NCBI GenBank assembly: GCA_964354495.1
Contig: CAYHAA010000019.1
Span: 1 to 32,000 of the forward strand
Origin: an uncultured archaeon
GTDB lineage: Archaea > Asgardarchaeota > Thorarchaeia > Thorarchaeales > Thorarchaeaceae
Direction: 5' to 3'
DNA: 32,000 nucleotides
Part shown: in pieces, positions 1,487 through 29,718 of the stretch
How the letters are laid out: every line of letters begins with the position of its first letter
Numbering within the stretch: the first letter of the stretch is position 1
The notes under the pieces: model-generated
The model's input: only the letters and a program-made list of their open reading frames with translations
Database searches by the model: none
Told to the model about the DNA's origin: nothing
Translations under genes and position numbers: made by a program

Positions 1487-2905
1487 CTAACTTTCCTTAT
1501 CTTCCTCGTCTTCGCCGTATCGCTTTACCTTGCCGAGTCTGCGACTGCTCTCAGCTGTGAAGCGATTGGGGTCAGGTGCTGAAAGGTCATGACCGGGTTT
1601 TCCTTTCTCTACGCCCTCGGCTCTCTCGCTGGGCCAAGCTTTGCCAGGCTCTGGTGCCCGCTCTGCCAAGTCCTTATCAACCTTGCCGGGCTCGAAGGTT
1701 TCACCTGATTCCTTGGCGCGCTCAACAATGCGCTCAGTGCGTTCATGAGTAAGATAGTACAAAGCTGTGAAGATTGCAGTCAATGGGAATGCAGCAAGCT
1801 TGGCAACATCCCGGAATAAGAATAGGAATCGCGGATCGGCAAGGATACCCGTTTCAAACCAACCAGTGCCGGGTATTCCTGAACCACCCATGATCGTGAG
1901 GGGATTCGAAGCGACAGCGATTATGCTATCAACAAAGAAGAATCCGCTCGCAAGGAAGAATGTGACTAGCGGACCGAAATCACCGATTCGGCCACCTGGT
2001 TTCTCAGCAGCCTCGGTCGCAGTCCGACCTATCCCACTCAAAGCATATGCCAAGAAGAACAGAGACATGGCGATGTCTACTGGTCCCATTCCAAAGACAC
2101 CGGTCCTCCTCATTACATTGACAAGAAAGTAGCCGGCATAGATTCCAATGAATAGTGTTAGAAGAGAAATATTCAGAGCGGCTCCTTTCCCAGCATATCT
2201 GACAAATGCGAGAAGCATGACTAGAGCAAACAGTCCCATGCAGGCATACGCTACAATAAGATAGGTGAATTGGTTTGCAAGGTTGGCCGTAGCTAATGGA
2301 AAGATCCCGTTGATCATTGTACCTAAGCCGAGAATATCATTCGGAACTAAGTATAAAGCGAGCAGGGCTTCTGCAGCAATTATTACTAGACCAATTATTA
2401 GGATTATGAAACTCCCTGTACCTAGGAGAAAACCACCTTTCTTTGGTTCGGCAATTGTGGCAATCCTAAGACTCGTTCGTGTTGAAAGATATCCTTGAAA
2501 AGCAATCCAGCCAACCCAACCGAATATCGCGAAGAATAGCAGGGCCGTACGACCGACCAGAATTGATAGGAACACAGCGATAGCGAATGAAACAACCATC
2601 CAACTGAGTCCTTTCATTTCAGTGACCCTACCCCGACCTCGTCTTGTAATCCAGAGTCGGTCTGCTCCCAAGCCTGTGAATAGTGCACCTAGAGCGAAGT
2701 AGATTGTACCAGCTGAACCTACATATGTGAAGAAGTAAACAAGTATTTCCTCTATATCGCTCCCAGGATTGGTATACATCATCCAGGATACCAACAGGCC
2801 TAGAAAAGTAGTGGCTACAAACACAATGAGATACGCAAGGTATCTTCTAGTCTTAAAGAATACACCAAGACCACTTATTATTCCAGAGAGAATGGGAATC
2901 TGCAA
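1487..2905 (-). CDS. Multi-pass membrane protein of unknown function
   Basis: 472 aa, TTG start with GGAGGT upstream; about 11-12 hydrophobic segments and a highly charged C-terminal tail. Confidence 0.85.
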   Translation of the reverse strand: MQIPILSGIISGLGVFFKTRRYLAYLIVFVATTFLGLLVSWMMYTNPGSDIEEILVYFFTYVGSAGTIYFALGALFTGLGADRLWITRRGRGRVTEMKGLSWMVVSFAIAVFLSILVGRTALLFFAIFGWVGWIAFQGYLSTRTSLRIATIAEPKKGGFLLGTGSFIILIIGLVIIAAEALLALYLVPNDILGLGTMINGIFPLATANLANQFTYLIVAYACMGLFALVMLLAFVRYAGKGAALNISLLTLFIGIYAGYFLVNVMRRTGVFGMGPVDIAMSLFFLAYALSGIGRTATEAAEKPGGRIGDFGPLVTFFLASGFFFVDSIIAVASNPLTIMGGSGIPGTGWFETGILADPRFLFLFRDVAKLAAFPLTAIFTALYYLTHERTERIVERAKESGETFEPGKVDKDLAERAPEPGKAWPSERAEGVEKGKPGHDLSAPDPNRFTAESSRRLGKVKRYGEDEEDKES

Positions 2906-3042
2906 ATTTGGGACCTCCCTTAATGAGCATCGTTAGTAGCTAGAAGGATTTAAGCTTTGGCGGAATCAATTTGCTTTCTCAAGTGAAGAGTAATAAGGCG
3001 TTTCTCACTAGATAAGCAGTCTGTTAGGGGGACAAGTGCCCA

Positions 3043-5637
3043 ATGGCCGTTCGCGTTCTAATGGTAGATGATGATTTAGTTCATCTTGAGCTAAGTGAAC
3101 GATTTCTGCATAGACAGAGTCCAGACTATGAGATAGTGCCAGTTCAAACCTCAGCTGAAGCCATCAAACATCTTGAGGAAGGCGGTTTTGATGCCGCTGT
3201 ATGCGACATTGATCTTGCTGAAGAAACTTGGAGTGGACTGGACATCCTCGAACATGTGAGGAGTTCTGGTGATGAGATTCCATTGATCATCTTCACCGGA
3301 AAGAGCAGAGAAGAGTTTGCAATCCAAGCACTCAATCTTGGAGCTGACTACTACCTCAGAAAAAGCGAATCAAACATTCAGGGGCTCTATGCAGAGTTGT
3401 CCTATTACATTCTCATGGCTGTCGAGAAGCGCAGGACAAAGAAAGCTCTGAAAGAGTCAGAACAAAAGCTCAGGGAAAGTGAAGCCAGGCTTGCTGAGGC
3501 TCAGAGGATATCCCATTCGGGGAGCTGGGTCTGGGACATTGTTGAAGACAAGGAGGTCTGGTCAGATGAGATCTATCGTATCTTCGGCCTTGCACCACAG
3601 GAATTCCTGGCAACATACAAGGCGTTTCTGGATTCGGTCCATCCAGACGATAGAGACTTGATCAGGAATTCCGTTGATGAGGCATTGAATAAGAGGACTC
3701 CCTATAGCATAGACCATCGGATTGTTCGTCCGGATGGATCTATCCGTCATGTTCACGAAGAAGGAGAAGCAACATTCGATGATGAAGGCAGAGCCGTCAG
3801 AATGATAGGCACTGTCCAAGACATAACAGGACGCGCAAATGCCGAGCCCAGAACAGGGGAAGAATGGTGGCAGGGAGTCTTCGAACACTCCCCGGCAGGC
3901 ATTGGTATCTTCAATTCCGAAGGCCTGCTCATTGACGCAAACAAGGCGGCTGTCGAACTGCTAGGCACGAAGAATCGTGAGTCGCTCTTGGGTTTGGATC
4001 TCTTCAAGGAATCCAGACTGCCGGAGAAAGTGCTGGAAGGCCTGCGGAAAGGAGAAGCGCAACGTTTCGAATACAAATGGGATTTCAAGTATGTAAGAAA
4101 GAGGAATATCCTGGACACCTCAAGAAGCGATGTCATCTATATGGATGTGGTACTCTCTGTTCTTCAGGGTCCTAATGGGCATACGAGGGGGTACGTCATG
4201 CATGTTACTGACATGACAAAAAGCCGTGGGATCGAGGCATCTCTAAGAGCCAACGAAGAGAGGTTCAGGACGATTTTTGAGGAATCACCCATTTGTATAG
4301 AGCTGTTCGATTCGGACGGCATTCAGGTTGGAGCAAATAAAGCCAGCCTTCAGCTCTTTGGGCAGGAGGATTTGGAAGATGCCATGGGTTTTGATCTCTT
4401 CGCAGATCCCAATACGCCGCAATTCGTCAAAGAGAAACTGCGTAGGGGAGAGGCCGCCAGAACGAAAACACGATTCGATTTCTCAAAAGTCAAGAAGAGT
4501 GGGCTGTATAAGACAACAAAGTCAGGGATTATGTATCTCGATGCTGTCGCTTCCCCTCTTCGCTATGGAAGGGAAGATGAACTTAATGGATTCATCGTTC
4601 ATATTCAGAATGTCACCGACACGTACCTTGCAGAGCAAGCGCTTCTCGAGAGCAGACAGAACTACAAGGAATTGTACAACAACGCGCTCATCGGGCTCTT
4701 TCGTGCAAGAACCTCAGACAGCATGATTCTTGAGTGCAATGATTACTTCAGTAGAATCTTTGGTTTTGAAAATCGACAAGGTCTCATTGACGAATCGAGT
4801 CACTTCAAGGATTTGTTGGTGAGCTCAAAAGACTGGACGAGTCTAAAGGAGAGACTCAAGAAAGAGGAACGGATTGTGACAGAGTTGCAGGTCACTGGAA
4901 GAAACGGGCAGCATCTCTGGGTGAGATTTTCACTGCATCGACTATCAGAGAAAGGCTACATTGAGGGTGTGATGTCAGATATTACGCAGCAGAAAGAGGC
5001 AGTTGAGATGCTTGAGAAGCAGAGAGAAGAGCTGAGTGATTTTGCACATTCAATGAGCCACGATTTGAAGGGCATCTTTCATAACATCATGGGATTCATT
5101 GAACTTGCAGAAGATGAAAGGAGTCTCAAGCATCTCGAACGTATTCACAGCCTCATTCGGGACACAAGCGACCTGCTGGATCACTCAGTCATGCTGGCAG
5201 ATGCAGGTCTCGTTGTTGAAGAGAATTTCACTGATGTGGACCTTGGCAGACTGGTCAGCAGTGTGGCAAGTTCAACAATACCTGAGAGCATCGAGTATTC
5301 ACAGGATGCGTTGCCTGTTGTGAAAGCGGATGAAATGAAGATCACTCAGGTCTTTAGGAACCTGTTTGACAATGCTGTGAAGCATGGTAAACCAAATCGC
5401 ATTCAGGTCAGACTTGCAGAGCGAGGAGGTATGTATTGCATTGCTATCTCTAACGATGGTATGGAGATACCAAGCAAGTACCGACCTAATCTCTTCCAGA
5501 GGGGTTTTACGACCAGCAAAACAGGAAAAGGATTCGGATTGACGATTGCCAGACGGATTGTCGAGGCTCACAGATGGAGCATTCAATTGGGAGATGGCAA
5601 TGGAACTACCTTTGAACTACTCATTCCTAAGCACTAG
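3043..5637 (+). CDS. Hybrid sensor histidine kinase (REC-4xPAS-HisKA-HATPase)
   Basis: Receiver motifs VDDD, CDID and GADYYLRK; four PAS/PAC repeats; H-box SHDLK, N-box NLFDNAVKHG, G-box GKGFGLTIARRIVEAH. Confidence 0.95.
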   Translation: MAVRVLMVDDDLVHLELSERFLHRQSPDYEIVPVQTSAEAIKHLEEGGFDAAVCDIDLAEETWSGLDILEHVRSSGDEIPLIIFTGKSREEFAIQALNLGADYYLRKSESNIQGLYAELSYYILMAVEKRRTKKALKESEQKLRESEARLAEAQRISHSGSWVWDIVEDKEVWSDEIYRIFGLAPQEFLATYKAFLDSVHPDDRDLIRNSVDEALNKRTPYSIDHRIVRPDGSIRHVHEEGEATFDDEGRAVRMIGTVQDITGRANAEPRTGEEWWQGVFEHSPAGIGIFNSEGLLIDANKAAVELLGTKNRESLLGLDLFKESRLPEKVLEGLRKGEAQRFEYKWDFKYVRKRNILDTSRSDVIYMDVVLSVLQGPNGHTRGYVMHVTDMTKSRGIEASLRANEERFRTIFEESPICIELFDSDGIQVGANKASLQLFGQEDLEDAMGFDLFADPNTPQFVKEKLRRGEAARTKTRFDFSKVKKSGLYKTTKSGIMYLDAVASPLRYGREDELNGFIVHIQNVTDTYLAEQALLESRQNYKELYNNALIGLFRARTSDSMILECNDYFSRIFGFENRQGLIDESSHFKDLLVSSKDWTSLKERLKKEERIVTELQVTGRNGQHLWVRFSLHRLSEKGYIEGVMSDITQQKEAVEMLEKQREELSDFAHSMSHDLKGIFHNIMGFIELAEDERSLKHLERIHSLIRDTSDLLDHSVMLADAGLVVEENFTDVDLGRLVSSVASSTIPESIEYSQDALPVVKADEMKITQVFRNLFDNAVKHGKPNRIQVRLAERGGMYCIAISNDGMEIPSKYRPNLFQRGFTTSKTGKGFGLTIARRIVEAHRWSIQLGDGNGTTFELLIPKH

Positions 5638-5957: not shown

Positions 5958-6950
5958 TTGTCCGATCAGTTTCTCAGAACTCATAGTTCAGCAATTGAAT
6001 GGTTACTCCAACGTTCAGACCCGTCGGTGAGATACAGAACACTTACTGACATCAATGCTCTACCGAACACTCATCCTGATGTAATAGAAGCACAGTGTTC
6101 TGTGAAAGGAAGCGCTCTCCTGAAGGAGATTCTTGGGCATCAATTAGCAGATGGCAGCTGGAGAGGGCCCAGAGGAGATATCTGGGAGGAGAAGGGAACT
6201 GTGTTCTCATTGCTTCTTCTAGGCGAACTCGGCGCAGATACCTCTGCGGCGACGGAAAGAGCACTCGATCATCTGCACAACTACTATCAGCTGCCTTCTG
6301 GAAGAATCACTTACAGGCCTGTTCGGAATTCTCGCAATCAAGAAACATCATCCACATGGATGTGGTGCATCACAGCAGCTGTTCTTCGGGCTGGCGCGCT
6401 GCTTGGTCATCTGAAGAGCCCTGCTATCCAGCATGCCATACAGTTCTTCGAGGACACCCACTGCAATGAAGGCGGCTGGTATTGCTCTACGTACTCCAGG
6501 AATCCCTCAAAGGTCACCCCGCATAACTGCTACATGGGGACTTTGAAGGCACTTGGCGCATTCTCTGCAATCCCGCCAAGACGACGCTCAAAGAAGGTAC
6601 GGTCAATCATCAATAGTGAGGTACAGACATGCCTAGACAACGAGGTCTGCTATTACAGGGTGAACCGAGAAGGGAAACCAACCATAAAGAGGGCATGGCT
6701 GAAGTTTGCATTCCCCAGATACTGGAGAAGCGACGTATTAGAGGCAGTTGATGTCCTTGCTTATCTAGGAGTACACGATTCCAGGTTGGATAAAGCTCTT
6801 GCCATTATCACCGAAAAGATGCAGCCTGATGGGAGATGGCTGATGGACTTCTCAGAAACGAAGCGGGCATGGGTACAAATCGAAATTGAAGGCAAACCAA
6901 GTAAGTGGATCACTCTGCGAGCGCTCAGAGCCCTGAATCGCCTCAAATAG
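5958..6950 (+). CDS. Prenyltransferase/squalene-cyclase-like alpha/alpha-barrel protein
   Basis: 330 aa; N-terminal WLL...PSVRY motif; QW-like repeats (QLADGSW, QLPSG, NEGGW, QPDGRW); C-terminal FAFP and GKPSKWITLRALRAL typical of this conserved family. Confidence 0.7.
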   Translation: MSDQFLRTHSSAIEWLLQRSDPSVRYRTLTDINALPNTHPDVIEAQCSVKGSALLKEILGHQLADGSWRGPRGDIWEEKGTVFSLLLLGELGADTSAATERALDHLHNYYQLPSGRITYRPVRNSRNQETSSTWMWCITAAVLRAGALLGHLKSPAIQHAIQFFEDTHCNEGGWYCSTYSRNPSKVTPHNCYMGTLKALGAFSAIPPRRRSKKVRSIINSEVQTCLDNEVCYYRVNREGKPTIKRAWLKFAFPRYWRSDVLEAVDVLAYLGVHDSRLDKALAIITEKMQPDGRWLMDFSETKRAWVQIEIEGKPSKWITLRALRALNRLK

Positions 6951-25083: not shown

Positions 25084-27306
25084 TTAGGTCTGTTGCCTCC
25101 TTGCATCACTATCAGCTGACATAGAAGACACCTCCAGCTCATCTCCATCCTCATATGCCTGCCTTAGCCAGACAAGGAATGATAACGTCACAAACGCGAT
25201 AGCGGCAGTAGGAAAGGCAGTGTATCCAAGAAGTAGTGCCCCCGGGAGCGTGGAGAGATAGGTGAGTACTGACCCAATGGGAACCCAAACCAAGGAAACC
25301 TCTCTGCGAATGTATCTCCAGAGCGCCACTATCGTGAAGAACCCACCTAGGCAGTATGGTACACCAATGAACAGAGATGCAAGATGGAAACTGGGAAAAT
25401 CCCAGCCACCCCCAATGCCACTCGCTCCTGAAAGCGGAAGGAAAAGAAAGGATTCATCTGTGATGGCACACGGGAGGACCAGGAGAAGAAAGAAGAGGAA
25501 TGCTACGAACCAGCCTCTCCGAATTGCAAAGTCATCAAGGAATTGCATGGAGAGCGAGAATTCATCTGGCTTTCTTTCTATGACCTCTTTTGTCACCGGC
25601 TCAGGAGTGGAATCCCTTGCAAGTAGACCATATAGGTCGCTTACCTTGTACTTCCCAGTAATCGATAGGACACAGACCAGGAACAACCACGCAGTCGGGA
25701 TAGCGACTACTAACCCAATTGGGAGAAGAATACTCCCCGGTACTCCAGTCGTGAGGATTGTCGCGAATTGTGCGTCTATGATGTAGAGTGATGGAAGGAA
25801 AAGAAGAAGACCCATTCCGATATCATTTCGTCTGTTACTCGGCGTGCCAAAATGCAGGGCCGACCCGAGGACAGGCAGCCAGTACAGTATTATTGAAACA
25901 ATCGACCAGATGACCACTTCAGAAGGAATTGTCCAGACGATGGAGGAACCCTCCACCCAGTAGCCCACAAGCGGAAATGGGCCCATTAATAGACTGTGTA
26001 TAGGGATTGCGAAATCCTGATGGTATGGAGCGAAGACGTGTGCATTATAGAACCATGGAATCACTGAGAGAATCGAAAACACCAAAAAAGGAATCAACCT
26101 GAAATCCCTGTGTATCTTTCTCCTGGAAATGTGCAAGTACAGTGATACTCTTAGCAGGATGAGAAGGAATAGCATGAACGTAAGAAGAACTGAGATTATA
26201 TGAGTGGTAGTTTCAAATCCCCCGAATGTCAGATTATGAAAATCAACCTGTACAAGCAGATTGTATGAGCCATTGAGATTGATGTTCCCCGAAGAGTGGA
26301 CTGATGCTACATCCATTCTATCCGCGTGTTCAAAGTCTATCTTGGAGAGCGATACTTCAATGTGAGTGGAGTACTCTTTTGGAGCATAGAGGTAGGCAGG
26401 CATCAATTTGGGTGGAACATACAAATCATACATTATATCGTAGTATCGCAATAGACGTATGTGAGTTATGGGATACAGCGTGTCAATATCTAGGTCAATA
26501 CGAATTGTGAGAAGTCGGACATCTACAGCAACCTCTTCGTTCTGGAAATAAGTAATATTCACTGGAATTGAAGAGCTATGTTCTGGATACCACCTGGCGC
26601 TGCCAGTGAGATTCCCGGGTCGTAGATATAATGTATGATTGACGAATCTTGGATATAGGTCAGCAGCACTCGACGTATTGTTGTCCTTGTATAGACGAAG
26701 AGAGGGAGGGTAGCTAGAAATGCTTCCGAGTAATACACTATCGAATAGACTCTGGCCATCTGTTGTTTGCATGTCGATCGCAACAGGCACGAGGGGAACA
26801 GTCGAAAAGACCCAGACCACGAGGCCATGAACGATGACATCGTCAATCGGCCTAATGCTCGGTGATAGATCCACAAGCCAGCGAGCGGAAAGCTCCTTTA
26901 TCCAGGTCATATTAAGCTCTATGGACAGAGTACGAGATTCGCTGAGATTCTCTGCTACTGACACACCCCGCCCATCACAGTAGACGCTGAATGTAACGGC
27001 AGTTGTGGCGACACGGGGCTCCAAACTCACGTTGAATACTATACGATTGTAATCAAAACGCGGCAGTTGAAAATAGTGAAAATGCCCATAGGGGTCAACA
27101 TAGGATCTGTTTAGCACGATGTGAGAATTGACTGAAATCAGAGGTGCCCGCTCTATAGAATAGGTCATGTTTTGGCTTATGGGCGTTGTATACTGAATGT
27201 CCATTTCTCCCTGCTGGCCGAATACAGAGTTGTCTACCTCATTGGCGGACACAAGAAAGTACGCCACAAGAAGTATTGAGATGGTGACGATTCTCACCTT
27301 CGACAT
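25084..27306 (-). CDS. Large membrane protein: signal anchor, beta-rich extracellular region, multi-TM C-terminus
   Basis: 740 aa from ATG 27306. A TATAAA at 27379-27374 puts the expected transcription start downstream of the ORF-track start at 27360. Several N-X-S/T sequons lie in the N-terminal half. Confidence 0.8.
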   Translation of the reverse strand: MSKVRIVTISILLVAYFLVSANEVDNSVFGQQGEMDIQYTTPISQNMTYSIERAPLISVNSHIVLNRSYVDPYGHFHYFQLPRFDYNRIVFNVSLEPRVATTAVTFSVYCDGRGVSVAENLSESRTLSIELNMTWIKELSARWLVDLSPSIRPIDDVIVHGLVVWVFSTVPLVPVAIDMQTTDGQSLFDSVLLGSISSYPPSLRLYKDNNTSSAADLYPRFVNHTLYLRPGNLTGSARWYPEHSSSIPVNITYFQNEEVAVDVRLLTIRIDLDIDTLYPITHIRLLRYYDIMYDLYVPPKLMPAYLYAPKEYSTHIEVSLSKIDFEHADRMDVASVHSSGNINLNGSYNLLVQVDFHNLTFGGFETTTHIISVLLTFMLFLLILLRVSLYLHISRRKIHRDFRLIPFLVFSILSVIPWFYNAHVFAPYHQDFAIPIHSLLMGPFPLVGYWVEGSSIVWTIPSEVVIWSIVSIILYWLPVLGSALHFGTPSNRRNDIGMGLLLFLPSLYIIDAQFATILTTGVPGSILLPIGLVVAIPTAWLFLVCVLSITGKYKVSDLYGLLARDSTPEPVTKEVIERKPDEFSLSMQFLDDFAIRRGWFVAFLFFLLLVLPCAITDESFLFLPLSGASGIGGGWDFPSFHLASLFIGVPYCLGGFFTIVALWRYIRREVSLVWVPIGSVLTYLSTLPGALLLGYTAFPTAAIAFVTLSFLVWLRQAYEDGDELEVSSMSADSDARRQQT

Positions 27307-27585
27307 ATAGAACGACCATGGGCCCACTCGAAATATCAATTCCCTCGCCTGCAAAACCAATGGCCTACGATGTTTTATATCTTTGCAGAGTCATGAGAAA
27401 GAGCAATCGCATTCAATCATCTGTACTCATTCTCAATTCTCGTGAACACACACCAGGACGGTAGTCAGGCTCTGTCGAATAGCTTTGCCTATTCACATGA
27501 GAGAGAATTCTGCGGCAATTGCAGTGATTCAGTATCGGAGGAAGCCAATAGCCCAGCGATTGACCTGCACTGATACTGCAGAGGT

Positions 27586-28518
27586 TTAGCCCCGTACCTT
27601 GTTCATCCTCTCCAGTATGGTTCGTATATGAGGAATATACTGTTCAGGCACAGTGACTCTGTTTTCCTCCGGGAAGTTCTCCAGGACACTGATGATCTTT
27701 TCCAAGGTATGCTTCTTCATTTGTCGGCATATCGCAGCATCATACACGGGAATTATCTTCTTCTCCGGATGCCTCTTTTGTAGTTGTTGAACCATGCCTA
27801 GTTCTGTGGCAATCAGGAACACCTTTGCATCGGACTCAGCCACCGTCTTTGCCATCATCCCAGTGGACCCAACCATATCTGCGGCATCCTGAACCTCAAT
27901 GGGGCACTCGGGATGAGCTATCGCCACAGAGTCGGGATACTTTGCCCTCAATGACTTGAACATCTCAAGATTGAACATATTGTGTACGTAGCAATGGCCC
28001 TCCTCATCCAAGTCAATGATCTGAACTGAGGTGTGCTTTCTGACATAGTTCGCAAGATTGACGTCGGGCCCAAAGAGCACCGTGTCAACTCCGAGTGACT
28101 CCACGACCTCGACTGCACTACCTGATGTGCATATCATGTCAGCCTCGGATTTTGCTTCAGCAGTTGTATTCACATAGACAACGACAGGGACACCCGGATA
28201 CTCTCTCTTCTTCGCTCGTATCTTCTCCGCATCAAGGCATGCTGCAAGGGGACAGAGTGCCTTGGGATCAGGAATGTAGACGGAGACTTCAGGTGAGAGG
28301 ATTGCCGCCATCTCGGCCATAAAGCGCACTCCTGCGAAGAGGATGGCGCTGTGGGCATTCGACTCAGCAGACTTCCTAGCAAGTTGGAGAGAGTCTCCCA
28401 CAAAGTCAGCTATATCCTGAATGTCTAAAGTCTGGTAGTTGTGAGCCAGAATGAGGACTCTCTTCTGTCCCTTCAAACTAAGAATCTTCTTCTGAAGCTT
28501 GTTGTATCTAGGCGGCAT
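27586..28518 (-). CDS. nadA: Quinolinate synthase A
   Basis: LAHNYQ, GDSLQLA, GVRFMAE, YVNT and HPEC motifs; three [4Fe-4S] cysteines (ALCPLA, GHCYVH, AICRQMK). Confidence 0.96.
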   Translation of the reverse strand: MPPRYNKLQKKILSLKGQKRVLILAHNYQTLDIQDIADFVGDSLQLARKSAESNAHSAILFAGVRFMAEMAAILSPEVSVYIPDPKALCPLAACLDAEKIRAKKREYPGVPVVVYVNTTAEAKSEADMICTSGSAVEVVESLGVDTVLFGPDVNLANYVRKHTSVQIIDLDEEGHCYVHNMFNLEMFKSLRAKYPDSVAIAHPECPIEVQDAADMVGSTGMMAKTVAESDAKVFLIATELGMVQQLQKRHPEKKIIPVYDAAICRQMKKHTLEKIISVLENFPEENRVTVPEQYIPHIRTILERMNKVRG

Positions 28519-28553
28519 ACAATTGCACCTTTTCTCAACTCGCCTAGAATTAC

Positions 28554-28626
28554 TTTTAATGAAATCTCAAACGGCAATGATTCCCGTGTAGAAGGGGAGT
28601 AGGCAACTTTTGCCATGTCATTTAAG
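28554..28626. promoter_or_regulatory. Divergent promoter region between nadA and the NAD kinase-wHTH gene
   Basis: TTAAAA on the - strand (28559-28554) and TTTAAG on the + strand (28621-28626) flank two GGCAA-N3-TT(G/C)CC motifs at 28573-28585 and 28602-28614. Confidence 0.5.
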
Positions 28627-28671
28627 TGGACTGAGCTCCAGTGAAGATGCGCCTATTTGATGGAGAATGCA

Positions 28672-29718
28672 ATGATGAGAATCGGTGTCATGTCTGGACT
28701 GGAAGCAGGCATGCTTGAGGACACCAAGAGCGTTATTGATACACTTGTCAAGAGCAAAGCAGAATTTGTCCTTGATGAGAAACTCGCGGACAGTATCGGA
28801 ATGAAGAGTGGTCCCACCAAGAGGATGAACGTAGACATCCTGACGATTATTGGATCTGACAGGTTTCTTTTGAAGACACTCTTGGAGCTCGGACAGGCTG
28901 ACACTCCAATCCTCCCAGTAGCCTCGAAGGGCCAGCCAGATTTTCTCTTCGATGTTCATGTGACAAATTTCGAGAGCGTCATTGATGACTTGCTTGAAGG
29001 GAGATGGAATCGTGAGGAGAAGAAACGGCTAGTTGCAGAAATCTCCGGAAAAGAGACCCCACCTCTCCTCAACGACATAGGCATTTTTGCACGGAGAAGT
29101 GCGACTCTGATACGATACTCACTTCTGTTAGGTGGAGAACATTTCTGGAAAGACGGAAGTGATGGATTGATAGTGGCCACGCCAACGGGCAGCACTGCTT
29201 ATTCGCTGAGTGTCGGTGGTCCGGTCATACTCAATGCCTCCCCCGTGTTTTCAATCATTCCCGTGAACAGTGTGAATCCTTCCAGAAGGCCGCTCATCTT
29301 GCCCGAAGACCTAGAAGTTGAGGTCAGAGACCTGACAAGTTCTGTCGCCATAGAGGCAGTTCTCGACGGCCAGATTAGAAGGAGAGTTGACAGCAAACCA
29401 GTCAGGATCCGGAGAGCCGACTCAAGTGCATTCTTCGTCAAATTCGAGGTGGAGAGGATTGCAGCCCTCAGGGGTAAGCTTCTAAAGAAGTCCGAGGCAT
29501 CAGAAGGGCACACTCAAGAACTCCCTCCGAGTGCGAAACTCGTTCTCAAGGTCCTTGAGTACCAAGACCAAATGAGCCAAAAGGAAATAATAGAGGAAAC
29601 GATGCTCCCTGCGAGGACAGTTCGCTATGCACTCTCACTCTTGATGAGTGAGGGACTGGTCACAAAGAAGCTGTCTCTTCGAGATAGTCGCCAGGGACTA
29701 TACCAAGTAAAAGAGTAG
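28672..29718 (+). CDS. nadK: NAD kinase family protein fused to a C-terminal winged helix-turn-helix
   Basis: LND, DGLIVATPTGSTAYSLSVGGP and VLDG kinase motifs; the GGDG motif is altered to GSDR; wHTH from LPPSAKLVLK (29521) to the end. Start could be 28657, 28660, 28672 or 28675. Confidence 0.85.
   Translation: MMRIGVMSGLEAGMLEDTKSVIDTLVKSKAEFVLDEKLADSIGMKSGPTKRMNVDILTIIGSDRFLLKTLLELGQADTPILPVASKGQPDFLFDVHVTNFESVIDDLLEGRWNREEKKRLVAEISGKETPPLLNDIGIFARRSATLIRYSLLLGGEHFWKDGSDGLIVATPTGSTAYSLSVGGPVILNASPVFSIIPVNSVNPSRRPLILPEDLEVEVRDLTSSVAIEAVLDGQIRRRVDSKPVRIRRADSSAFFVKFEVERIAALRGKLLKKSEASEGHTQELPPSAKLVLKVLEYQDQMSQKEIIEETMLPARTVRYALSLLMSEGLVTKKLSLRDSRQGLYQVKE

Follow-up and report, generated by a model that had tools for sequence, protein, structure and literature searches.

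A degenerate NAD kinase fused to a winged helix, encoded divergently from nadA, as a candidate NAD(P)-sensing regulator in Thorarchaeota

We analyzed a stretch of 32,000 nucleotides (the window; contig CAYHAA010000019.1 of assembly GCA_964354495.1, positions 1 to 32,000) from a metagenome-assembled genome (MAG) of an Asgard archaeon of the Thorarchaeota (3.3 Mb, 97.7% complete). In this window, a gene for a protein that joins the fold of a nicotinamide adenine dinucleotide (NAD) kinase to a winged helix-turn-helix (wHTH) at its C-terminus is transcribed divergently from nadA, the gene for quinolinate synthase. We propose, with a probability of roughly 0.72, that this fusion protein is a dimeric, NAD(P)-sensing pseudoenzyme transcription factor for nadA and for itself, which would have arisen from a duplicated NAD kinase. 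The computed fold, the states of the kinase motifs, the presence of a canonical paralogue, the gene linkage, the palindromic operators and the disappearance of these operators along with the regulator support a regulatory role; DNA binding, the identity of the ligand, the loss of catalysis and the sign of regulation are inferred.

We characterized the kinase-like part of the fusion by profile searches and structure prediction. A Pfam scan matched PF20143 (NAD_kinase_C) with 64 bits (cut-off 23.7, E=1.3e-17), gave no match to the model of the N-terminal NAD kinase domain (PF01513), and the best NCBIfam NAD kinase equivalog, at 127 bits, missed its family cut-off of 326. With the AlphaFold2 model, built from an alignment of 29 sequences and having a predicted local distance difference test score (pLDDT) of 86.8, the top Foldseek matches were all NAD kinases (E=1e-26, target TM 0.82-0.86; 7mh7, 7qvs and 4hao at 0.82-0.85), and a phmmer search of the PDB with the protein sequence returned 14 NAD kinase sequences. 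The model and the Foldseek matches thus place a two-domain NAD kinase fold in the fusion. NAD kinases carry three motifs, GGDG, NE/D and conserved region II; in Mycobacterium tuberculosis Ppnk, Asp85, Asn159, Glu160, Thr200 and Tyr202 are essential, and Asp189 from the neighbouring subunit completes the NAD site, so that NAD binding needs the dimer (PMC8553519). The counterparts of these residues in the fusion are D63, N134, D135, T175 and Y177, with D164 corresponding to Asp189. In place of GGDG stands G61-S62-D63-R64, in which the first glycine and the aspartate alone are retained, and residues 87-92 read GQPDFL instead of GxLGFL (GTVGFL in the canonical paralogue). The NE/D motif is kept as N134-D135, D164-G165 is present, and region II, TPTGSTAY, runs from T170 to Y177. 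An earlier note, made from the letters of the window alone, had described a protein with GGDG changed to GSDR, the G-LGFL loop changed to GQPDFL and an intact C-terminal half containing TPTGSTAY, with a gene starting at 28672 and lying head to head with nadA, and we arrive at the same description. The longest reading frame opens at TTG 28657; we prefer the ATG at 28672 because of a conserved GGAG(G) Shine-Dalgarno sequence and the N-termini of homologues.

We then compared the motifs in 28 fusion proteins and the canonical paralogue. N134, D164, G173-S174-T175 and Y177 are invariant or nearly so across these 29 sequences, with N134, G173, S174 and T175 fully invariant. The GGDG column reads GSDR/K/G/T within the Thorarchaeota family, GNDK, GDDG, GGDG, GGAA, GRDR, GDTG or GGTG in other Asgard families, and GEDR/K, GDDN or GSDR outside Asgard; the catalytic aspartate of this column is lost in two fusion lineages, families f8 and f30. 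Inside the Thorarchaeota family, conservation extends to the altered loops, GSD and SKGQPDFLF, which argues that the pocket has been remodelled and is not decaying. Such a pattern, in which the ligand pocket is maintained while the phosphoryl-donor machinery is freed of constraint, fits a pseudoenzyme sensor. Judged by the GGDG motif and the curated thresholds, the fusion lies outside the functional NAD kinases despite its fold.

The genome contains three genes of the NAD kinase family, one each on contigs C1 and C4 and the fusion. The C1 gene encodes a canonical NAD kinase of 293 aa with GGDGT, GTVGFL and TPCGSTAY, which exceeds the cut-offs of both PF01513 (62 bits) and PF20143 (85 bits) and reaches 219 bits with its best NCBIfam model. 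It is the second, canonical kinase that the earlier note had suggested looking for, and its presence makes the fusion an extra, divergent paralogue. The C4 gene (376 aa, VGGDGT, a weak match to DAGK_cat) has no wHTH and was excluded as a member of the system. On C1, the canonical kinase gene (L001:1054-1935, +) lies ~560 bp from a divergent gene for an Lrp/AsnC-type regulator (L001:44-496, -).

The motif data also bear on an alternative, namely that the fusion is a bifunctional enzyme and regulator: a still active NAD (or NADH) kinase, with substrate or product occupancy of the working site controlling DNA binding. RbkR, BirA and enterobacterial NadR are examples of bifunctional enzyme-regulators. 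The catalytic aspartate D63 is kept, as are the NE/D motif and region II, and one fusion, from family f5 (locus L038, 4986-6026, +), combines GNLGFL with the only intact GGDGT among the fusions, exceeds the cut-offs of both Pfam NAD kinase domains and carries the wHTH; the fusion may thus well have started out as an active kinase. In the window protein, however, both glycines flanking the aspartate of the motif give way to serine and arginine, the Pfam N-domain is unmatched, and the NCBIfam score is 127 bits compared with 219 for the paralogue. The GGDG column varies freely among fusions, to the point of losing the aspartate in f8 and f30, a canonical paralogue is present, and the fusion has repeatedly been deleted while the canonical kinase stays. 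We therefore consider such a bifunctional protein unlikely.

The C-terminal winged helix, whose fusion to the kinase fold had been claimed in the earlier note, is seen in the AlphaFold2 model, where residues 286-346 form three helices with a short strand between the first and the second and a beta-hairpin wing (helices 286-298, 303-310 and 314-326; strands 300-302, 330-334 and 342-346). It is the best-conserved segment of the fusion protein in all lineages compared, and the related fusion in L038 clears Pfam MarR (29.8 vs 24.6). A scan for the wHTH signature, covering one genome per prokaryote species, found at least 575 relatives. Halobacteria, Methanosarcinales and Marine Group IV commonly encode small stand-alone wHTH proteins (~90-150 aa) with the signature LPPSAK[LFY][VI][LF][KT] (loci L113, L116, L118, L123, L124, L126, L128, L131 and L137-L156); these form an apparently large archaeal family that would be the source of the fusion's DNA-binding domain. 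When the fusion was predicted as a homodimer, it gave an ipSAE of 0.47 against 0.00 for the best control, with runs sharing at least 63% of their contacts and a partner pLDDT of at least 81; 20 of 30 proteins with structures of same-chain pairs scored as high as this, as did 1 of 23 with single-chain structures, although the pass may reflect only a likeness to NAD kinase dimers already solved. The predicted interface (residues 153, 174, 179, 182-194 and 206-214) belongs to the C-domain and adjoins the NAD site.

A search of 400 genomes of the phylum with the fusion protein gave full-length matches, wHTH included, across most genera of the family to which the window belongs and in at least eight further families. 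In every one of the 32 Thorarchaeota-family loci that have flanking sequence, the divergent neighbour is nadA (four further loci are cut by contig ends). The arrangement recurs in a sister family and in families f6 and f8; in f8, the fusion proteins are only 27-35% identical to that of the window and the neighbour is a nadA-nadC operon. In two further Asgard families, the neighbouring gene encodes a nicotinate-type phosphoribosyltransferase of 420-454 aa that resembles quinolinate or nicotinate phosphoribosyltransferases (QRPTase/NAPRTase-like). The L038 fusion stands next to divergent NfnAB-like genes (2400-4647, -), and its 3′ end is overlapped by a gene for a phosphatase of the HAD family (6026-6721, -); this locus may represent a variant of the system that centres on NADP(H). 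Kinase-bodied fusions also occur in MAGs labelled Brockarchaeota, Thermoproteota, Nitrososphaerota, Woesearchaeota, Baldrarchaeota, Njordarchaeota and Methanodesulfokora. Ten of these are divergent from nadA, nadA-nadC or nadA-nadC-nadB (in MAGs labelled Brockarchaeota, Thermoproteota, Nitrososphaerota, Woesearchaeota and Baldrarchaeota), and two lie upstream of a phosphoribosyltransferase gene, a linkage seen in a Njordarchaeota MAG. Linkage to nad genes, which the earlier note had named as something to check, is thus conserved across Asgard families and in other archaeal phyla. Its mention of similar fusions in Nitrososphaerota holds only loosely: MAGs with this label, as well as those labelled Brockarchaeota and Thermoproteota, do contain them, but the window itself comes from Thorarchaeota.

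Linkage and pocket conservation can be set against another alternative, in which the fusion senses a ligand other than NAD(P)(H), such as ATP/ADP, ADP-ribose, nicotinate adenine dinucleotide or an intermediate, for example quinolinate. The strong conservation of GSDR and SKGQPDFLF within the family could mean that the pocket was selected for something new, and the bacterial regulator NrtR, a Nudix pseudoenzyme, senses ADP-ribose and not NAD (PMC2330246). By contrast, exactly those residues that touch NAD's nicotinamide and adenosine parts in solved NAD kinases stay invariant in all fusion lineages, and NAD(P), as end product or substrate, is the sole common denominator of the linked genes, nadA, nadA-nadC, the phosphoribosyltransferase gene and NfnAB. 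A different ligand is accordingly a distinctly unlikely solution.

Alignment of 34 spacers between nadA and the fusion gene, 32 of which were taken for column statistics, revealed five conserved blocks: a TATA-like box for nadA, two operators (O1 and O2), a TATA-like box for the fusion gene (the regulator TATA-like box) and the Shine-Dalgarno sequence (Table 1). The DNA between and beside these blocks has a column identity of 0.44-0.50. By analogy with archaeal promoter architecture, the first box would be the promoter element of nadA. The left half of O1, GGCAA, is identical in 32/32 spacers of the Thorarchaeota family (column identity 1.00), and its right half is usually TTGAC. The centres of O1 and O2 are 29 bp apart in the window and in 27 of the 29 loci with both sites, and 30 bp apart in the other two; the distance of 5 nt from O2 to the regulator TATA-like box holds in the window's genus and varies in other genera. 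A 5-N3-5 palindrome is the expected reading site of a dimeric wHTH protein.

The palindrome GGCAA-N3-TTGCC, allowing one mismatch, occurs four times in the window against 0.82 expected, a number reached in 0 of 100 shuffles, and two of the four sites fall in the 153-bp spacer. In the whole 3.3-Mb genome, O2 is the top match of the position weight matrix (PWM), at 20.8 bits, and O1 and O2 are the only clearly intergenic entries among the top 45. Exact palindromes number five in the genome (2.8 expected), of which O2 alone is intergenic and the other four lie inside long open reading frames. A wider regulon in the source genome was rejected, as the remaining exact sites are intragenic and the top 45 PWM matches include no further clearly intergenic one. 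Three borderline sites without a link to NAD were taken as chance: C4:141869 lies at the 5′ end of a gene for a GNAT acetyltransferase, C4:65968 precedes a gene that belongs to no family, and C16:19909 falls between sucC and sucD. The palindrome accompanies the fusion gene in other lineages. In family f8, four of five loci have their lone site with at most one mismatch, within 11 kb, in the spacer between nadA and the fusion gene; Brockarchaeota-type spacers carry GGCAATAATTGCA, likewise 12 nt from the nadA TATA box; in Woesearchaeota the palindrome reads GGCAAATTTTGCC; and the palindrome is present in Baldrarchaeota spacers as well. In the phosphoribosyltransferase-linked loci L040, L041/L115 and L117, GGCAA-N3-TTGCC was not found. 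L115 and L117 have in common only one GTTGCAATT stretch; there, at L115:1940-1975 and L117:455-490, the shared upstream sequence reads CGTTGCAATT...ATCCTCCATA, which could be a variant operator half-site.

Genomes that lack the fusion offer a natural deletion experiment. We discarded the phyletic co-occurrence of nadA with the fusion as a criterion, since many genomes hold nadA without the fusion; nadA itself gave no match in 15 of 86 family genomes, mostly incomplete ones. We examined the nadA neighbourhoods of 12 family genomes with nadA and without the fusion (L062-L073). In these, the fusion gene is cleanly missing between nadA and the gene for a beta-CASP protein that follows the fusion gene in the window. 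The genomes span five genera, which implies at least five losses. The palindromes are gone in 8 of the 12 loci, and remnants are left in the other four (one or two sites, once still 29 bp apart), two of which also retain coding fragments of the wHTH (L067, 5097-5255; L071, 3768-3844). In L071, one collapsed operator is left, as if O1 and O2 had recombined. L062 has kept the TATA box of nadA, O1's GGCAA half and the regulator TATA box, the last of which now precedes the beta-CASP gene; this inheritance suggests that, in the window, the beta-CASP gene is transcribed from the regulator promoter, and it may be under the same control as the regulator. The operator thus mostly decays with the loss of the regulator, which is the strongest in silico argument that the protein reads the operator. 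The idea put forward in the earlier note, that of a wHTH regulator of de novo NAD synthesis, gains support from this pair of conserved palindromes that is lost where the regulator is lost.

These observations make it very improbable that the wHTH serves protein contacts in a kinase-like enzyme or scaffold, the palindromes being sites of another factor or promoter elements: although its Pfam scores are below thresholds and stand-alone LPPSAK-signature proteins, as in Halobacteria and Methanosarcinales, could in principle read similar sites, the palindromes follow the fusion gene across phyla, decay after its deletion though nadA and its TATA box remain, and have a 5-N3-5 form that suits a dimeric wHTH protein, and the wHTH is the most conserved protein segment.

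Given a dimeric NAD(P)-sensing transcription factor, a mechanism can be outlined. The kinase body would hold NAD(P) through the residues that it keeps (Asn134-Asp135, Asp164, Thr175 and Tyr177), having lost the glycine-rich GGDG loop that would handle the phosphoryl donor; this combination makes a ligand sensor, and not the cell's NAD kinase, its most likely role, and the NAD kinase job would be done by the canonical paralogue elsewhere in the genome. The protein would dimerize through the kinase C-domain, as NAD kinases do, and each dimer would offer two winged helices to one 13-bp palindrome. O1, 12 nt from the nadA TATA box, would sit beside the expected transcription factor B recognition element (BRE), and O2, 29 bp further, would abut the regulator TATA box; with the nadA TATA box centred near -26, the two operators would be centred near -49 and -78. 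Ligand occupancy, most plausibly by NAD+ or NADP(H), would alter DNA binding and in this way set the transcription of nadA, whose product carries out the committed iron-sulfur step in making NAD de novo, and that of the regulator's own operon, probably including the beta-CASP gene. Binding beside the BRE could block transcription factor B (TFB), with NAD(P) as co-repressor, or else the protein could recruit the TATA-binding protein and TFB when the ligand is absent. We lean slightly to repression by occlusion of the BRE and TFB, by analogy with the bacterial NAD regulators NadR, NiaR and NrtR, and the 5 nt between O2 and the regulator TATA box suggest autorepression.

Several observations weigh against this proposal or parts of it. 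Both O1 and O2 lie upstream of the inferred nadA TATA box, which is not the classic position of an archaeal repressor and fits an activator equally well. A palindrome search at nadB, nadC, the aspartate dehydrogenase gene and the canonical NAD kinase gene found no site, so the regulon looks purely local, consisting of nadA and the regulator's own unit. The winged helix stays below the gathering scores of Pfam, with 23.5 bits for MarR_2 on residues 289-346 (cut-off 27, E=6.4e-5) and 19.6 for HTH_24 (cut-off 21.9, E=6.7e-4). The catalytic aspartate D63 is retained in the Thorarchaeota proteins, leaving room for residual or altered kinase activity. The compared loci are kin, and counts of conserved loci overstate their independence. 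Finally, many losses show that the regulator gene can be dispensed with in nature, and the control that it would exert is not essential.

A broader reading, whose parts we put forward only jointly and as a tentative possibility, would make the fusion a member of an ancient, pan-archaeal family of NAD(P) regulators (Asgard, TACK and DPANN) in which a duplicated NAD kinase turned into a pseudoenzyme sensor. The G-x-D-R/K donor loop would set a basic residue at the site of the product's 2′-phosphate, and NADP(H), or the NADP/NAD ratio, would be read instead of NAD+. A tetramer, as in NAD kinases, would bridge O1 and O2, and the protein would act as a ligand-switched activator and repressor of the first committed iron-sulfur step of NAD synthesis. 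If true, this would be the first transcriptional circuit of NAD(P) homeostasis known in Archaea, in the lineage nearest eukaryotes.

Among known regulators, RbkR and NrtR come functionally closest. RbkR is an archaeal cofactor-pathway regulator with a MarR-like wHTH fused to a precursor kinase, is autoregulated, and was recognized by comparative genomics from conserved palindromes before biosynthesis genes (Rodionova et al. 2017, PMC5397151). RbkR differs in having its wHTH at the N-terminus and a riboflavin kinase domain that depends on CTP and has no relation to NAD kinase. It is catalytically active and, in most genomes, the sole riboflavin kinase, and CTP and flavin mononucleotide tune its binding to DNA (PMC5397151); the fusion has a C-terminal wHTH, a degenerate kinase signature, a separate canonical kinase and a dispensable gene. 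Neither a Pfam scan nor the fold gave a riboflavin kinase domain in the fusion, which makes RbkR an analogue and not a relative. NrtR likewise combines a degenerate enzyme-fold effector with a C-terminal wHTH, forms a dimer, acts at palindromes before nadA/nadB/nadC or salvage genes, and is often divergent from its targets and autoregulated with them (PMC2330246; PMC6800001), but its effector is a Nudix domain that senses ADP-ribose, it is bacterial, and it has no sequence relationship to the fusion. NadR of enterobacteria and NiaR/YrxA of Bacillus, Clostridium and Thermotoga repress de novo NAD genes including nadA (PMC2330245). Both respond to the pyridine nucleotide or niacin pool, and NadR couples a helix-turn-helix to NAD-pathway enzyme domains; they differ in their effectors, nicotinamide mononucleotide adenylyltransferase and ribosylnicotinamide kinase in NadR and a 3H domain in NiaR, and in being found only in bacteria. 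Pfam and NCBIfam scans detected none of the adenylyltransferase, ribosylnicotinamide kinase, 3H and Nudix effector domains in the fusion. Canonical NAD kinases (M. tuberculosis Ppnk, Archaeoglobus fulgidus Afnk and Listeria monocytogenes NADK1; PDB 1u0r, 1suw and 2i1w) have the two-domain fold of the fusion (target TM 0.76-0.86) and share its NE/D motif and conserved region II, and the predicted C-domain dimer is as in the solved enzymes; the fusion departs from them in GSDR, GQPDFL, the added linker and wHTH, and 127 bits against the NCBIfam cut-off of 326.

As far as comparison of sequences goes, the fusion represents a new family within a known kind of regulator, in which a sensor derived from an enzyme is joined to a wHTH. 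In the literature searched, whose coverage of subscription journals is incomplete, neither an NAD kinase-wHTH regulator nor an NAD regulator from any archaeon was described. To our knowledge, bacterial NadR, NiaR and NrtR have no archaeal counterparts. If it is a regulator, the fusion would be the first candidate NAD regulator for Archaea, and a sensor derived from NAD kinase, if true, would be a new ligand-binding module among enzyme-derived transcription factor domains. The natural series from GGDGT through partly degenerate forms to those without the aspartate would offer a stepwise view of an enzyme becoming a pseudoenzyme sensor. Because the 13-bp operator is defined, the regulon is small and local, and strains with natural deletions exist, the hypothesis can be tested directly in vitro, though Thorarchaeota are uncultured. 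Homologues are currently annotated as "NAD+ kinase", "sugar kinase" or "hypothetical", and the present kinase annotations would inflate the NADP-synthesis capacity in metabolic reconstructions of Asgard archaea.

Table 1 Features of the nadA and fusion gene locus, in positions of the window
Feature	Position	Strand	Basis
nadA (quinolinate synthase), 310 aa, proposed regulated target	27586..28518	-	Pfam NadA E=2.4e-100; NCBIfam nadA equivalog 347 bits vs cut-off 294
Spacer shared by nadA and the regulator gene, 153 bp, genes divergent	28519-28671		
nadA TATA-like box, CTTTTAAT (+ strand) / ATTAAAAG (nadA sense), 35-42 nt upstream of nadA ATG	28553..28560	-	mean column identity 0.84, 32 spacers
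Operator O1, GGCAATGATTCCC (GGCAA-N3-TTGCC with one mismatch), 12 nt from nadA TATA-like box	28573..28585	.	spacer alignment
Operator O2, GGCAACTTTTGCC, perfect 13-bp palindrome, ends 5 nt before regulator TATA-like box	28602..28614	.	column identity 0.97-0.99
Regulator TATA-like box ATTTAAGT; conserved block (G)TCATTTAAGTG	28620..28627	+	mean column identity 0.93
Shine-Dalgarno-like GGAG, 6 nt 5′ of ATG 28672	28662..28665	+	GGAGG kept at that position in spacer alignment
NAD-kinase-fold and C-terminal winged helix fusion, 348 aa	28672-29718	+	open reading frame, domain profiles
NAD-kinase-fold module (proposed sensor), residues 1-265	28672..29466	+	NAD_kinase_C E=1.3e-17; NCBIfam NAD kinase model aligned end to end, 127 bits vs cut-off 326
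Motifs within this module: GSDR; GQPDFL; LND; SDG; TPTGSTAY	28852-28863; 28930-28947; 29068-29076; 29158-29166; 29179-29202	+	alignments
Flexible linker, residues 266-282	29467..29517	+	AlphaFold2 pLDDT <50 at residues 268-278
C-terminal winged helix-turn-helix, residues 283-348, and stop codon	29518..29718	+	signatures LPPSAKLVLKVLEY, RTVRYALS, SLRDSRQG
Beta-CASP/metallo-beta-lactamase protein, 712 aa	29758..31896	+	Pfam Lactamase_B_6 and Beta-Casp; NCBIfam aCPSF1 177 bits, far under cut-off

The beta-CASP gene starts 39 nt 3′ of the regulator gene, an arrangement kept in the Thorarchaeota family and in one sister family, and is probably co-transcribed with it; a Pfam scan gave no match for the N-terminal ~320 aa of its product, whose C-terminal half is an aCPSF1-like beta-CASP/metallo-beta-lactamase nuclease. 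Directly downstream of nadA, the window encodes a protein of 758 aa (25084-27360, -), which matches no Pfam family at E<=0.01 and is predicted to be a multi-pass membrane protein.

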